Of a stretch of 64,000 nt of DNA, positions 46,607-52,255 are shown piece by piece. The notes below the pieces were generated by a model. It saw only the letters and a program-made list of their open reading frames with translations. It was not told the origin of the DNA and did no database searches. Origin of the DNA: Chloroflexota bacterium (lineage in GTDB: Bacteria; Chloroflexota; Dehalococcoidia; Lucifugimonadales; JADFKI01); NCBI GenBank assembly GCA_027623195.1, contig JAQBUT010000002.1:32001-96000 (forward strand), in the 5' to 3' direction. Both the position numbers and the translations under genes were made by a program. Numbering within the stretch: the stretch's first letter is position 1; the number at the start of each line of letters is the position of its first letter.

Positions 46607-46680
46607 GCCCGATACTCTGCTGTTATAATGTTTGCCTTTCCTTGCAAAAAGCACAAATTTGTGGGCGTGCCAGGTGTAAT

Positions 46681-47916
46681 ATGCCTAGTCGATGGGATCA
46701 ATGGTATAGCGGTGGGCATCCACCTACTTGTACATGTGTTGCCTGCAACGATAGACGCCTAGGTCGACTGGGGGCCGGGCAAGGAGGGGGAGGGCGCAGA
46801 GGCGCAATAGGAGTGGCCGAGCGGCCTGACTACCCCCGTCGGGATGAAGGTAAGTCGTGGTTCCGGCCGATATTTTTTGGGGCGTTAATCATAGTCACTA
46901 TTGGCTTGATCGGCTCATTCTCGATTCATTTTAGTCAAGGGGCGACTGGCGCTGACGCGGTAGCCATGGTCGTAGACAATGTTAAATTGACGGCCACCTG
47001 CCCTACTGAGGTAGGTAGGGTGGCAAGATTCATCTTGCGGCCTGATTCTGTTCCCATCACGTCGGAATTATCTGCGGACGCCTCTTCGAGATTCTTAGAC
47101 GCCATATGCGATGGTCACATTGCCGTTGCTCAAGCCATCATCTTGGAAGGCCGAAATATCGGAACTAGAAGTGCAAATGATTTCAGTCCGACAGTGACCC
47201 CTTTTCAATTTCTGAGGCCAACAGTTGCCGTGGTTATAATCCCCTCCGCAACCGTTACTCCAACGCCTCGGCAGAATATCTTGCCTAAATCGACACGCAC
47301 GCCGCCATCTGCACCGCCGACTACCGTAGTTCAAACGCGGCCTACAAATACCCCGGCATCAACTAATGTTCCAGCCAAAGCACCAAGCTTCTTTGAATCA
47401 CTGGACGACTTGCGAAAATCTAGCGGCATCACGCAACCTGATATCGATCTACAGCAATTGGCCGAGCGAGTTCATGCTTTGATCAATGCTACACGTAGCA
47501 AAAACGGGCTTAGTCCGCTTGCTCTTGATCCAAAAATAACAACCATCGCCCAAATTCATAGCGTTGATATGGCCCGATTTGATTATTTTGATCATGATAA
47601 TTTGCAGGGGCTGGATGCTACGGCTAGAGGTGCGGCTGTCGGCTACGATTGCATAAAACACTACGGAGGTTACTACACATTTGGCTTAGCTGAAAATATC
47701 TATCAAGCTTGGCTTTACTCTTCAACGACTTATATTAACGGCCTACCTATTCGAGATTGGAATTCGCAGGAAGAACTAGCGATAATTGCCGTCCAAGGAT
47801 GGATGGATAGCCCTGGCCACAGAGAAAATATTTTGACCGATACCTACGACAGAACTGGAGTAGGCGTAGCCGTTGCCCAAGATGGCAAGATATACATCAC
47901 TCAGAACTTTTGCTAA
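46681..47916 (+). CDS. membrane-anchored CAP (SCP) domain protein
   Basis: N-terminal HPPTCTCVAC, one TM, Pro/Thr linker, LINATR..NGL, HS.DM...YFDH, AENI, WMDSPGHRENIL, TQNFC. Confidence 0.88.
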   Translation: MPSRWDQWYSGGHPPTCTCVACNDRRLGRLGAGQGGGGRRGAIGVAERPDYPRRDEGKSWFRPIFFGALIIVTIGLIGSFSIHFSQGATGADAVAMVVDNVKLTATCPTEVGRVARFILRPDSVPITSELSADASSRFLDAICDGHIAVAQAIILEGRNIGTRSANDFSPTVTPFQFLRPTVAVVIIPSATVTPTPRQNILPKSTRTPPSAPPTTVVQTRPTNTPASTNVPAKAPSFFESLDDLRKSSGITQPDIDLQQLAERVHALINATRSKNGLSPLALDPKITTIAQIHSVDMARFDYFDHDNLQGLDATARGAAVGYDCIKHYGGYYTFGLAENIYQAWLYSSTTYINGLPIRDWNSQEELAIIAVQGWMDSPGHRENILTDTYDRTGVGVAVAQDGKIYITQNFC

Positions 47917-48416
47917 TGCCCTTCGCCCTCGGCCTCTTTGCGGCGGCGTTCGCGGTTAGTGATCTGGCGGACGGCCTCGTCGGCACCCATGCGTCCCACC
48001 GGGCCTGAGGCGTACATGGAGCCTATCACCACGCCGCCTCGACTTATCAGGAACTCGGATGGCTGTATGTAGCCTCCCCTGTCCTCTGACCACCATGCGC
48101 CGAAGCTTTCGGACTCCGCCTGCGTAACGCCGTAGGCCACCGGGAACGTTGCCCCCGACTCCTCGACGGTCTTTTGGGCGTTCTCCAGAGTGTCCACGCT
48201 GGCGGCGACTACGGTGCAACCCAAGGCCTCAAGCTCGGCCTTCTGCGACTCCCACGCGGCTAACTGCCGCACGCAGTACGGTCACCAGTGGCCACGGTAG
48301 AAGAGCAGCGCTACGTACCGGCTGGGCATCTCCGCTGGAAACGACATGGTGCCGCCGTTAGTGAAGTTAAGGCTAAGAGAGGGGAACCTGTCGCTCTGTT
48401 GAAGCATTGCGGCCAT
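47913..48416 (-). CDS. selenocysteine-containing peroxiredoxin-like (AhpC/TSA) protein, 167 aa
   Basis: GGAGG RBS plus ATG 48416; MAAMLQQSDRFPSLSL...LLFYRGHW-TGA(48282-48284)-PYCVRQL continues in frame with the 119-aa track ORF. Confidence 0.9.
48243..48281 (-). promoter_or_regulatory. bacterial SECIS-like stem-loop
   Basis: Directly 3' of the UGA: CCGUA-CUGCG-U-GCGGC-AGUUA-GCCGC-GUGGGAGU-CGCAG; upper stem with G in the apical loop. Confidence 0.6.
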
Positions 48417-48504
48417 ATTGCTGTTTCCTCCGGCATGGGATTTTAAGGTTGCCTGACTCGAAATTCACCCTTGTGCTAGTGAGATGCATTCCAGGACATA
48501 TCGA

Positions 48505-48987
48505 TCAGCCCTCGATCAACTCTTCCTGAGGCTCATTGGCCGCACGCTCGCCGTCCAAGACCTTGGACAGGACCCTGAGCAGTGCTTGTACATCAAACCG
48601 GTCCAGGTACCGCAGGAAATGCTCTTCAATGCCGTTAATATGGCCCGGCATGGCATCGAACAGCGTCGTCTCGCCGTGGTTTGTGATGACCGCGTACGTT
48701 CCTCGCCTGTCCTCTTCGCAGGGGTGGCGTTCCACCAGTCCGGCCTGCTCCATACGGTCCACCAGCCGGGTGAGGCCGCTGCGACTAAGCAACGCCGACT
48801 CGGCCAGCTCCTGCATGCGCAAGGCTCCGCGCGGTGCGCTGTCCAGGTGGGCCAGGATGTCGTACCAGGTCAACGGAAGGGACTGCTCGTCCTGCATCTC
48901 CCGCTCCAGTTCGCGCATAACGGAGGCGTATGTGAGCAGGAATGCCCTCCAAGATGCTAGCCTCTGATCGTCGGATGCTGTGGTCAT
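48505..48987 (-). CDS. MarR family transcriptional regulator
   Basis: WYDILAHL, LRMQELAE..LLSRSGLTRLVDRME..GLVER....DRRG; start could extend to 49026. Confidence 0.95.
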   Translation of the reverse strand: MTTASDDQRLASWRAFLLTYASVMRELEREMQDEQSLPLTWYDILAHLDSAPRGALRMQELAESALLSRSGLTRLVDRMEQAGLVERHPCEEDRRGTYAVITNHGETTLFDAMPGHINGIEEHFLRYLDRFDVQALLRVLSKVLDGERAANEPQEELIEG

Positions 48988-49220
48988 AATGTTTGCGATA
49001 TTACCATCATTAAATTGCTTTGACAATTATTGTGAAGGCAAGTAATAATCGAAAATCATGGTTGTATAAGCAATCATCGACGGGCGAACAAGTACTGGTC
49101 GCCCTGCATCAGATTTTAAATTAGGGTTCTCCATGATCGGTTGTGGATGGCCAATTATGTGGTTATGATGGGGTGGAGCAGCACACGTCTTGTGTATTAA
49201 CGAAACCCATAGGTGGATGG

Positions 49221-50069
49221 ATGAGTCAAGAAAATAGGCCCGGCTTACTGGCAATATTCGCTCACCCGGACGATGAGTCGGCCGCCACGGGTGGTACATT
49301 GGCGCACTACGCAAAACTGGGTTTTCAGGTTGGGCTGGTATGTGCGACCCGCGGCGAGATAGGCGAGATTTCCGATCCTAACCTTGCGTCTCAGGCCAAC
49401 CTCGGCGAGGTGCGGGAGCAAGAGTTGCGTGATGCAGCCGCGGCCCTGGGTGTGGCTGACCTGACACTATTGGACTATCGTGATTCGGGCATGGCCGGCA
49501 CTGCCGATAATGAGCATCCAAACGCCCTCACTAATGCGCTGGCCGACGATGTTGTGGCGGCGCTGGTTGGAATTATTCGGCAACGCAAGCCTGGCGTTGT
49601 GATAACCTTCGACCCTAACGGAGGTTACGGCCACCCCGACCACATCGCCATACACCATCACACCGTCGAGGCCTTTACGGCGGCGGCGGACGTCTCCCGG
49701 TACAAGGACAAGGGAGCGCCCTGGAGTGCATCTCGGCTGTTCTACACCGTGTTCACCAAGGGCACCTTTGCAACGATGCGAGAAGGCCTGGAAAAGTTCG
49801 GCGCGGACTCCTCTGAGATGGACGAATGGGAGTCGGTGGCTCAGCTTTGGGACGACAACGATGTGCACGTGCGTATGGACCTGTCTGGAGTGGCCGACGC
49901 CAAGTGGGAGGCCTTGAACGCCCACCGCACTCAGTTCGGCGAGAACAATATTTTCAGTCGCATACCGGTAGAAGATGCCAAGGCCGCCATGTCCAGCGAG
50001 ACGTTTGTGCTGGCTCTGCCCGTCCCCGCTCCCGGAACCATCCTGGCAGACCTATTCGACGGCATTTAG
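49221..50069 (+). CDS. PIG-L family deacetylase/amidase (MshB/Mca-like)
   Basis: AHPDDE, ATRGE.GE, YRDSGM.G, GGYGHPDH, AHRTQ. Confidence 0.93.
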   Translation: MSQENRPGLLAIFAHPDDESAATGGTLAHYAKLGFQVGLVCATRGEIGEISDPNLASQANLGEVREQELRDAAAALGVADLTLLDYRDSGMAGTADNEHPNALTNALADDVVAALVGIIRQRKPGVVITFDPNGGYGHPDHIAIHHHTVEAFTAAADVSRYKDKGAPWSASRLFYTVFTKGTFATMREGLEKFGADSSEMDEWESVAQLWDDNDVHVRMDLSGVADAKWEALNAHRTQFGENNIFSRIPVEDAKAAMSSETFVLALPVPAPGTILADLFDGI

Positions 50070-50115
50070 GCTTATTAAGCCCCCCTGACGCTCGGAGAGG
50101 AATCGAAGATAACGA

Positions 50116-50826
50116 ATGATAGAAATTCGGCGCAAGGAAGACATCTTCAATATCCAGCAGGACTGGTTCGAGGGCTTCTGGCACTTCTCCTTTGGCGTGC
50201 CACCTCAGGGTTACCACGATTCTGATAACACCAATTTCGGCGCACTGAGGGTGTTCAACGTGGATACGCTGGTGCCTGGCGGCGTTTGGCCCATGCACCC
50301 GCACCAGAACATCGAGGTTATTACGTACTGTCTCGATGGCGAGTTCCAGCATGCCGACAACACGGGCAAGGGTGGTGTCCTGCTGAAGGGCGACGTTCAG
50401 CACACGACGGTTGGCAGAGGCATGCTCCACGAGGAGATTAACCACCGCAAAGACGTCCCCATGACTTTCTTGCAGATCTGGATTATGCCTCGGGAGGCCG
50501 ACCTGGAGCCGTCTATGGAGCAGCGCACCGTAGACCCCAAGGAAAGGCTGAACAAGTTTCTGACCTTGGTCTCTGATAAGAACCCAGATGCCCTGCCCAT
50601 AGCGCAAGACGCAGAGTTTGTGGTCTCTAGTCTGGAGAAGAACCGCAGCGCCTCCTATGCGCTTCCGGATGGCTACGGCGCGTACCTTTTGGTAGCATCT
50701 GGGCAAATCCAGGTAAACGGAAACGCCGCCTCCGAGGGCGACGCGGTCATGATTTCAGACACGCCGGCGGTGGACGTGAAGGCGGATAAGGCGAGCGAGT
50801 TGGCGATGGTTGTAGTTCGGGTGTAG
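50116..50826 (+). CDS. pirin family protein
   Basis: FGALRVFN.D, MHPH.NIE.ITY, H.D..G, G.GMLHEE.N, LQIWI.P. Confidence 0.95.
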   Translation: MIEIRRKEDIFNIQQDWFEGFWHFSFGVPPQGYHDSDNTNFGALRVFNVDTLVPGGVWPMHPHQNIEVITYCLDGEFQHADNTGKGGVLLKGDVQHTTVGRGMLHEEINHRKDVPMTFLQIWIMPREADLEPSMEQRTVDPKERLNKFLTLVSDKNPDALPIAQDAEFVVSSLEKNRSASYALPDGYGAYLLVASGQIQVNGNAASEGDAVMISDTPAVDVKADKASELAMVVVRV

Positions 50827-50862
50827 CCTGCGACATCCAAAGTCAGATACGGAGCGAGGAAT

Positions 50863-51402
50863 ATGGCGATCAAAACGAGAGGCGTTAATCATCCGGCAAT
50901 CATCGGCCAGGACCGTGACGAGACTGTTAAGTTCTACACCGAGGTGCTGGGCATGCGCCTGGTGCTGGACCAGCCCAATCTGGACGAGCCGCGCATGACT
51001 CACCTCTTTTTCGACGCGGGAAACGGCGGCTTCATCGCGTATTTCGTAATCAACGAGGGCACCGACCTGGAACTGCCAAAGGCCCAGGACGGCATTGGCC
51101 ATATGGGGCACGTGGCGCTGAACCTCATAGGGCCAATCGAGGATGCCATGGAGAACCTGAATAACCACGGCGTGAAGTTCATGGGGCCTATCGACCGAGG
51201 CTACGAAAGATCTGTGTATTTTAAAGACCCAAACGGCGTGCTTGTGGAGCTTCTTACCTGGATAACGCCGCTTCCCGAGGATGCTGACGAGGCTGAAGTC
51301 GTTGCCAGGGCCACGGTGCTACGGCAGCAGGAGGGAGCGCACCACATCGAGGACGAACACGTGCGCCGCGCAATGCAGGAAATGGGGTACGCTCTTGACT
51401 AA
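50863..51402 (+). CDS. VOC / glyoxalase family protein
   Basis: GVNHPAI, FYTEVLGM, GHVAL, SVYFKDPNG..VEL. Confidence 0.93.
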   Translation: MAIKTRGVNHPAIIGQDRDETVKFYTEVLGMRLVLDQPNLDEPRMTHLFFDAGNGGFIAYFVINEGTDLELPKAQDGIGHMGHVALNLIGPIEDAMENLNNHGVKFMGPIDRGYERSVYFKDPNGVLVELLTWITPLPEDADEAEVVARATVLRQQEGAHHIEDEHVRRAMQEMGYALD

Positions 51403-52255
51403 CGAGAACATTGAGTCCCGGCTCGTAACCTGTGACTGGCTTACCGAACACCTGGACGATCCCAACGTCCGCGTTATTGAAGTGTCGTCGTCGGCATCGG
51501 ACGCAAAGTATCGGCAGGGGCACATTCCTGGCTCGGCCTGGTGGAACTGGAAGGACGCATGTTGGCACGCCACAGACCGGGAGTTCGCCACACCGGCGGA
51601 GATGGCACAGCGCTTGGGGGTCATCGGCGTCGGCCCGGATACGACCGTCGTGCTGGTGGGAGAGCCTGTCCAGTATGGCACGTACGCCTTCTGGGCGCTG
51701 ACGATGGCCGGTCACAAAGACGTTCGTCTGCTGGACGGCGCGCGCACCTTGTGGACTGCAGAGGGTCGACCCCTGGATGCAGAAATGCCGAGCTTTTCAT
51801 CGGTCGATTACCCGCCGCCTGCGCCGGACCCGTCCAGCCGTGTGGGCCGCGACGACGTTCGGGCCAAGCTAGGCCAGCCTGGCCGTCTGCTACTGGACGT
51901 GCGCTCACCAGAGGAGTTCAGCGGCGAGAGGGTTAGCCCGGCTTCAATGATGGGAGCCGTGGACCACGGTGCGGAGCGGACCGGGCGTATACCCGGAGCC
52001 GTGCACCTCTTCTACAAGGACCTGCTGAACGACGACGATACGTTTTTGCCGGTCGAACGCTTACGCGAAATATTCGCGACCGCCGGAATCGCAGAAAACT
52101 CGCCGGACGAGGTAGTGGCCTACTGCCGCCTCAGCCATAGGGCTACGCTGGCCTGGGTCGCCATGGAGCACATCCTGGGCATGGCCAACGTTCGCATCTA
52201 CGACGGCTCCTGGACCGAGTGGGGCAGCATCGTCGGCTTCCCTATAGAAAAATAG
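51395..52255 (+). CDS. thiosulfate/mercaptopyruvate sulfurtransferase (tandem rhodanese)
   Basis: GHIPGS, LLDG, LDVRSPEEF.G, GRIPGA, AYCRLSHRA, YDGSWTEW; TTG start overlaps the VOC stop. Confidence 0.93.
   Translation: MTNENIESRLVTCDWLTEHLDDPNVRVIEVSSSASDAKYRQGHIPGSAWWNWKDACWHATDREFATPAEMAQRLGVIGVGPDTTVVLVGEPVQYGTYAFWALTMAGHKDVRLLDGARTLWTAEGRPLDAEMPSFSSVDYPPPAPDPSSRVGRDDVRAKLGQPGRLLLDVRSPEEFSGERVSPASMMGAVDHGAERTGRIPGAVHLFYKDLLNDDDTFLPVERLREIFATAGIAENSPDEVVAYCRLSHRATLAWVAMEHILGMANVRIYDGSWTEWGSIVGFPIEK

Follow-up and report, generated by a model that had tools for sequence, protein, structure and literature searches.

The window, which is the whole stretch of DNA analysed, is 64,000 nucleotides long and belongs to the genome of a Dehalococcoidia bacterium (Chloroflexota). 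A minus-strand frame in it encodes 167 amino acids when a TGA at codon 45 is read as selenocysteine (Sec). This TGA is the single internal stop of the frame and lies in the context VALLFYRGHW-U-PYCVRQL. The features of the gene, its neighbors, and the read-through candidates found elsewhere in the host genome are listed in Table 1.

Table 1. Features of the predicted selenoprotein gene and its surroundings in the window, and contigs of the host genome with further UGA read-through candidates.
Feature	Position	Strand	Remarks
Prx-like 1 (AhpC/TSA, PF00578) UxxC selenoprotein gene, predicted	47913..48416	minus	167 aa + TAG stop (47915-47913)
GGAGG, Shine-Dalgarno-like	48427..48431	minus	10 nt 5' of ATG 48416; from sequence
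In-frame TGA, codon 45, predicted selenocysteine	48282..48284	minus	Conserved in homologous loci
Cys48 (TGC), second residue of UxxC	48273..48275	minus	102/102 unique orthologs
Predicted bacterial SECIS, GCGGC-AGUUA-GCCGC	48256..48270	minus	Codons 49-54; codon freeze, covarying pairs
Pro119	48060..48062	minus	102/102 orthologs; invariant in alignment A1
C-terminal 119-aa ORF	48272-47913	minus	Only ORF listed for the gene
MarR regulator	49026-48505	minus	Upstream of the gene
Thiol/redox-flavored cluster	48505-52255		
CAP-domain gene	46642-47916	plus	Stop overlaps the selenoprotein gene end by 4 nt
Pfam-supported UGA read-through candidates	G000 (host) C1, C3, C9, C11, C24, C33, C44, C53, C56 (L139-L154)		

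The original prediction had placed the start at an ATG led by a ribosome-binding site and the UGA at the first position of a FYRGxWCPxC motif. Both placements agree with the sequence, which contains a GGAGG 10 nucleotides 5' of the ATG and translates as FYRGHW-U-PYC. In 26 of the 27 close loci, the ortholog begins 41 to 44 codons 5' of the TGA, and the remaining locus is truncated by the end of its contig. Contigs covering the gene were also obtained from three runs of a second study. These differ at 4 of 1001 nucleotides, none of them at the TGA or the hairpin, so the TGA at codon 45 is not an assembly error. A scan for promoters and terminators found no minus-strand site directly 5' of the gene and no terminator-like site.

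For this gene the ORF listing contains only the 119-amino-acid C-terminal ORF, and the protein database entry for the contig (P0002) is the same piece. It had been anticipated that only this portion would be called and that gene callers would truncate the gene, and the database indeed holds the fragment alone. Among the best 120 database matches, 91 are only 97–123 amino acids long. The 119-amino-acid piece contains neither of the two active-site residues, Sec45 and Cys48.

A hairpin begins after 11 nucleotides 3' of the UGA, with its loop 16 nucleotides from it. It is composed of a 5-base-pair stem and a 5-nucleotide loop (AGUUA), and the 15-nucleotide core has a folding energy of −8.3 kcal/mol. 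A hairpin at about this distance, where a bacterial SECIS is expected, was part of the original prediction; its position was confirmed, and the element has frozen codons and a covarying stem. The bacterial SECIS consensus model, as given in the available text of a 2026 review (PMC13188914), has a loop of 3–9 nucleotides, a stem of 4–16 base pairs, a spacing of 16–37 nucleotides, a G in the first two loop positions, and an MFE of −7.5 kcal/mol or lower. The hairpin agrees with this model in loop, stem, spacing, G, and MFE. Folding energy was rejected as proof of a SECIS because it does not exceed that of shuffled sequences, with a z of −0.62 over 60 nucleotides (49 of 200 shuffles as good) and of −1.5 over 25 nucleotides.

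The beyond-chance case for the predicted SECIS is comparative, and consists of codon freezing and covariation. Among the 102 unique orthologs, Arg50 is CGG in 98, Gln51 is CAG in 101, Leu52 is TTR in all 102, and Ala53 is GCC in 97. Elsewhere in the same genes, TTR accounts for 241 of 1446 leucine codons. The pS over codons 46–55 is 0.39, compared with approximately 0.65 elsewhere. The pair at +12/+26 is formed in 84 of the 102 orthologs (G-C 50, U-A 33, C-G 1) and in 70 of 80 metagenome loci (C-G 47, U-A 14, G-C 9), with shuffle means of approximately 45. The pair at +15/+23 is formed in 71 of 80 loci, in several forms, with a shuffle mean of 50. The counts at both pairs were reached by none of 2000 shuffles, which overstates their significance and is not a probability, since related sequences are not independent. 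The true register pairs in 94–95% of cells, while slid registers pair in 9–51%. The three core stem pairs are invariant and add no covariation signal. Approximately 10 of the 80 metagenome loci have a different hairpin, with an AGCTC or AGCTA stretch and a loop further 3'.

A close ortholog was identified in 27 of 41 genomes (the host and 40 relatives), and selA is present in 26 of these 27. In the remaining genome (G001, 86% complete) no selA was found, and a tRNA-Sec and a TGA-bearing selD are present. Almost every one of the closest named carriers is a metagenome-assembled genome of Dehalococcoidia, Chloroflexota, or SAR202. The 27 close orthologs and 80 GTDB loci make up 107 homologous loci, of which 102 are unique. 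All 107, nearly all of them from Dehalococcoidia or Chloroflexota, have TGA at the codon for residue 45. A metagenome scan in which any TGN codon was allowed gave TGA in 80 of 80 loci and no TGG, the 80 having been taken from at least 120 stretches on a basis that is not given. In 600 random pairs, the mean pN/pS values are 0.239/0.653 upstream and 0.234/0.644 downstream of the UGA. This equal constraint on both sides is unlike that of a pseudogene or of a gene beginning 3' of the UGA.

Cys-containing homologs had been expected to align to the UGA, and they do. When a Cys homolog was used as query across the phylum, 7 of 401 genomes matched, of which three have TGA (the host among them), three TGC, and one TAA. 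The Cys homologs were confirmed at the DNA level as TGC in L122, L124, and L128 (38–48% identity); these three loci are the whole of the Cys-form control, and they lack both the stem and the AGTTR loop. In 29 longer database proteins, the residue aligned to Sec45 is Cys in 25 and Trp in 4. The four Trp residues are in JGI records (P0003–P0006) and, judging from the protein records, would be mistranslated TGA codons.

Several individual copies depart from the common pattern. One TGA-form ortholog (L123) lies in a 1.3 Mb genome (G396, 96% complete) that has a tRNA-Sec and a TGA-containing selD and no match to the TIGR00474 selA model, which would be due either to a gap in the assembly or to a Sec synthase that has diverged. 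A 37%-identical homolog (L127; G438:C1:3069537-3069986, minus) has TAA at the Sec position and an intact hairpin. Recoding of UAA as Sec in that genome was rejected, its tRNA-Sec having the anticodon TCA and its selD a TGA, and the TAA is probably a nonsense change or a sequencing error. The TGC-form homolog L128 (G369) has an in-frame TAG at codon 50, and in L190 codon 52, inside the hairpin loop, is a second TGA. Errors or degraded genes probably account for both. Many relatives also have a second Prx-like gene, approximately 25–33% identical, with one TGA in a frame of approximately 320–410 codons from stop to stop; in L039 it reads FYRAFWUPFC.

The host genome measures 3.0 Mb, with a completeness of 87%. 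It had been inferred that the organism decodes Sec, and the machinery was found, with every component above its curated cut-off: selA (554 bits, cut-off 268), a full-length selB (311 bits, cut-off 242), selD (385 bits, cut-off 125), and a tRNA-Sec with anticodon TCA (63.4 bits, cut-off 47). The selD gene itself contains one TGA, in a CAGU motif. Where a genome devoid of Sec machinery and a UGA unconserved in relatives had been named as the contrary outcome, four sel components and TGA in 107 of 107 loci were found. UGA is an ordinary stop elsewhere in the host, as RF2 is present and intact and 165 of 993 long coding frames terminate in TGA. The tRNA-Sec is the only tRNA of the genome with a UCA anticodon, and the tRNA-Trp anticodon is CCA.

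A genome-wide TGA filter passed 36 of 36,768 sites, the Prx-like 1 gene included. Twenty of the 35 other candidates were checked against Pfam. Seventeen of the 20 matched redox or Cys-motif domains, and the listed stretch spans the TGA in 15; the three candidates without a match were dropped. The matches are to CMD/AhpD (three), UGSC (three), AhpC/TSA-type (three), DUF3179 (two), GrdA, GrdB, thioredoxin-NHL, DsbA, rhodanese, and an antiporter-rhodanese fusion. The host has at least 17 candidate UGA read-through genes besides Prx-like 1, in addition to selD, and this count is a lower bound because the filter missed selD.

The two DUF3179 genes (L140:161-1645, host C9; L150:211-1365, host C2) contain an in-frame TGA in W-U-T/P-L-C, share a CGTGT hairpin loop, and are candidate UxxC selenoproteins. 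In the GrdB-like gene (L145:202-1482, host C37) U-G-T-S replaces the usual UxxC, and a GrdA gene (CxxU) lies nearby.

The protein matches the Pfam families AhpC-TSA and Redoxin. The match to PF00578 (E 4e-20, 72.3 bits, cut-off 26) covers residues 9–130 and runs across the TGA. No NCBIfam model was matched at its cut-off; the Prx models all fall far short of theirs (PrxU, 27 of 270 bits), and NF002854 ResA reaches 20 of 170 bits. A search of PDB sequences gave no close solved relative, the best E values being 7e-5 with a single sequence and 3e-9 with a profile. An AlphaFold model with Cys in place of Sec45 has a pLDDT of 93. The best structural matches of this predicted model are BCP, AhpE, and Prx6 (Z 18–20), followed by ResA (Z 15.8). 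The BcpB match has a Z of 20.4 and an rmsd of 2.3 over 152 residues, and the Bcp4 match has a TM of 0.81. A basic C-terminal helix (RERRR) is seen in the predicted model and the sequence.

In alignments to human Prx2 and an archaeal BCP, Cys48 takes the position of the peroxidatic Cys. The Thr/Ser is matched by Sec45, the Pro by Arg41, and the catalytic Arg (Arg127 of Prx II) by Pro119. A ResA-like protein encoded in the host genome likewise has a Pro at the position of Pro119, and Pro119 would be in cis geometry facing the UxxC. Little or no variation is seen at Gln118, Tyr135, Arg142, and Trp108. According to the model, the protein is a Prx-like fold with a thioredoxin-like active site. The description of the protein as peroxiredoxin-like, with Sec in place of the redox Cys, thus stands in part: the fold is Prx-like and Sec is the first Cys of a thioredoxin-type CxxC, but Sec is not the peroxidatic Cys, which corresponds to Cys48, and with the Prx Pro, Thr, and Arg replaced the protein is not a true peroxiredoxin.

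The family is in print. A 2005 Sargasso Sea paper defined a Prx-like selenoprotein family by UXXC, as opposed to the TXXU of Sec-Prx, from 22 sequences (PMC1088965), and the 2008 GOS paper lists a family "Prx-like 1" with pfam00578, UxxC, and 225 sequences (PMC2398784); both are cited from the parts of the papers available. PF00578 and the UxxC (U45-P-Y-C48) are common to the gene and this family. The likeness to the published family rests on a motif search and a by-eye comparison with two GOS entries. In the available GOS sequence supplement (PMC2398784), FYRGHWU occurs 23 times and WUPYC 67 times. By eye, the motifs LFYRGHWUPYCRRQL, AASVD, IQPSEFL, and GPLGR of the first Prx-like 1 entry match those of the protein. 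The Dehalococcoidia branch differs in having the basic C-terminal helix and a YASGPVGRM motif, YASGP being found 0 times in the available GOS supplements. Judged by sequence, the gene is an additional member of the Prx-like 1 UxxC family known since 2005–2008. The available text of the 2026 review has a Prx-like thiol:disulfide oxidoreductase family as "predicted with high confidence" and not experimentally verified (PMC13188914). A literature search found only a review, and no biochemical study of Prx-like 1.

True peroxiredoxins (BCP/PrxQ, AhpE, Prx6, AhpC/Prx1) and PrxU have the same fold as the predicted model. They differ in the PxxxT/SxxC(U) motif, where the protein has Arg41, Sec45, and Cys48, and in the catalytic Arg, which is replaced by Pro119. 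The Sec of the protein lies three residues before the Sec position of PrxU (TxxU). ResA/TlpA proteins resemble the protein in a WCxxC-type motif and in the Pro that stands where the same strand begins, whereas the protein is without an evident N-terminal membrane anchor or signal peptide. PRX_like2 (cd02970) is described, in the part of the source available, as having a CxxC whose second Cys occupies the peroxidatic position, and as lacking the rest of the Prx triad (PMC3514251). Compared by description only, the protein fits these features with Sec for the first Cys.

According to the available text on BSepDB (PMC13326102), Dehalococcoidia are among the most selenoprotein-rich bacteria, and the top ten selenoproteomes include Dehalococcoidia UBA1141 and 10f4566d. 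Both of these carry an ortholog of the gene with TGA (L117 and L097, respectively). Among the papers searched, none joins SAR202 with selenoproteins.

A conserved operon was sought in 106 homologous loci (flanks of 1.5 or 3 kb, some duplicated), and no fixed context was found. Neighbors include an MFS transporter in 27 loci, a CAP protein in 8, MarR in 5, a PIG-L deacetylase in 5, and pirin in 3. As the neighboring genes are not conserved, the context names no substrate. In the window, the upstream MarR regulator gene is divergent from genes for a PIG-L/MshB-like deacetylase, a pirin, a glyoxalase-family protein, and a tandem rhodanese run. The link of this cluster to the selenoprotein gene is kept in only a few close relatives. 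The convergent CAP-domain gene encodes an N-terminal Cys-rich stretch and a Pro/Thr-rich linker.

Recoding of UGA45 as Sec is very likely on the comparative sequence evidence, and three other readings of the codon were weighed against it. The TGA could be a genuine stop or the result of nonsense mutation, leaving a pseudogene or the 119-amino-acid piece as the sole product. The use of TGA as a stop in 165 of 993 frames, the presence of RF2, and the TAA of the distant homolog L127 agree with this. It is nevertheless very improbable, since every one of the 107 and of the 80 loci has TGA at this codon, the 44 codons before it are under purifying selection equal to that on the codons after it, the hairpin codons are frozen, and the piece is devoid of Sec45 and Cys48. 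Even less credible is reading of UGA as Trp throughout the genome (code 4/25 type), to which only the W at position 45 in P0003–P0006 would point; TGA is a regular stop, RF2 is intact, the sole UCA tRNA is tRNA-Sec beside a tRNA-Trp with CCA, TGG is absent from the 80 loci of the TGN scan, and 25 of 29 longer homologs have Cys at position 45. Variant tRNA/SelB systems can place Cys at UGA, as can sulfur-charged SelA products. Insertion of Cys by the SelB route, or of Ser/Cys under selenium shortage, has a slim chance here, as a single canonical tRNA-Sec and a single full-length SelB were found in the host, with SelA and SelD, and no variant system was noticed among these components.

Once recoding is granted, the chemistry of the product leaves more room for doubt. 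The combination of UxxC with a ResA-type Pro is the disulfide-exchange signature of the thioredoxin fold, and thioredoxin-type chemistry is quite likely by analogy. The protein might instead reduce H2O2 or organic peroxides directly at Sec45, in the manner of glutathione peroxidase, with Cys48 resolving the oxidized selenium. The BCP, AhpE, and Prx6 matches rank ahead of ResA, Gln118, Tyr135, Arg142, and Trp108 could speculatively make a site of their own, and GPx-like selenoproteins with UxxT have Sec at the same first position (PMC13188914, in the text available). The peroxide-binding Pro, Thr, and Arg of peroxiredoxins are all replaced in the protein, which has UxxC and the ResA-type Pro instead, and direct peroxide reduction is the less likely of the two chemistries, though a serious rival. 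A more specific possibility, and a more doubtful one, is a third selenium-peroxidase design, in which a Prx scaffold without Pro/Thr/Arg would carry Sec at the glutathione-peroxidase position and use its own Gln118, Tyr135, and Arg142. If this were true, the design would occur near-exclusively with Sec (80 of 80 loci) in Dehalococcoidia and other uncultured bacteria, and the peroxide defense of the carriers would depend on selenium.

The reading preferred here is that one 167-codon gene, with UGA45 decoded as Sec, probably encodes a thioredoxin-type UxxC redox enzyme on a Prx-like fold. Following the established bacterial pathway, SelB-GTP-Sec-tRNA(UCA) would bind the AGUUR loop 16 nucleotides 3' of the UGA and compete with RF2 at UGA45. 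Where SelB loses, a 44-amino-acid peptide would result, and the output of protein is proposed to be selenium-dependent for this reason. From the layout of the active site, the Sec45 selenolate would be the nucleophile and Cys48 would resolve it to a selenenylsulfide. Disulfide exchange would pass through this Sec45-Cys48 bond, and a cellular reductant would recycle it. A general part in cytoplasmic antioxidant defense or in thiol repair would fit, by analogy, with the lack of a fixed gene neighborhood.

The 15-nucleotide hairpin is compact and strongly conserved and has natural compensatory variants, which would make it a convenient test SECIS for a Chloroflexota SelB. Marine data contain many Prx-like 1 sequences (225 in GOS, PMC2398784), and the family is still listed as predicted in the available text of the review (PMC13188914). 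Because public gene calls lose the active site, the redox capacity and selenium demand of the carriers would be under-counted.
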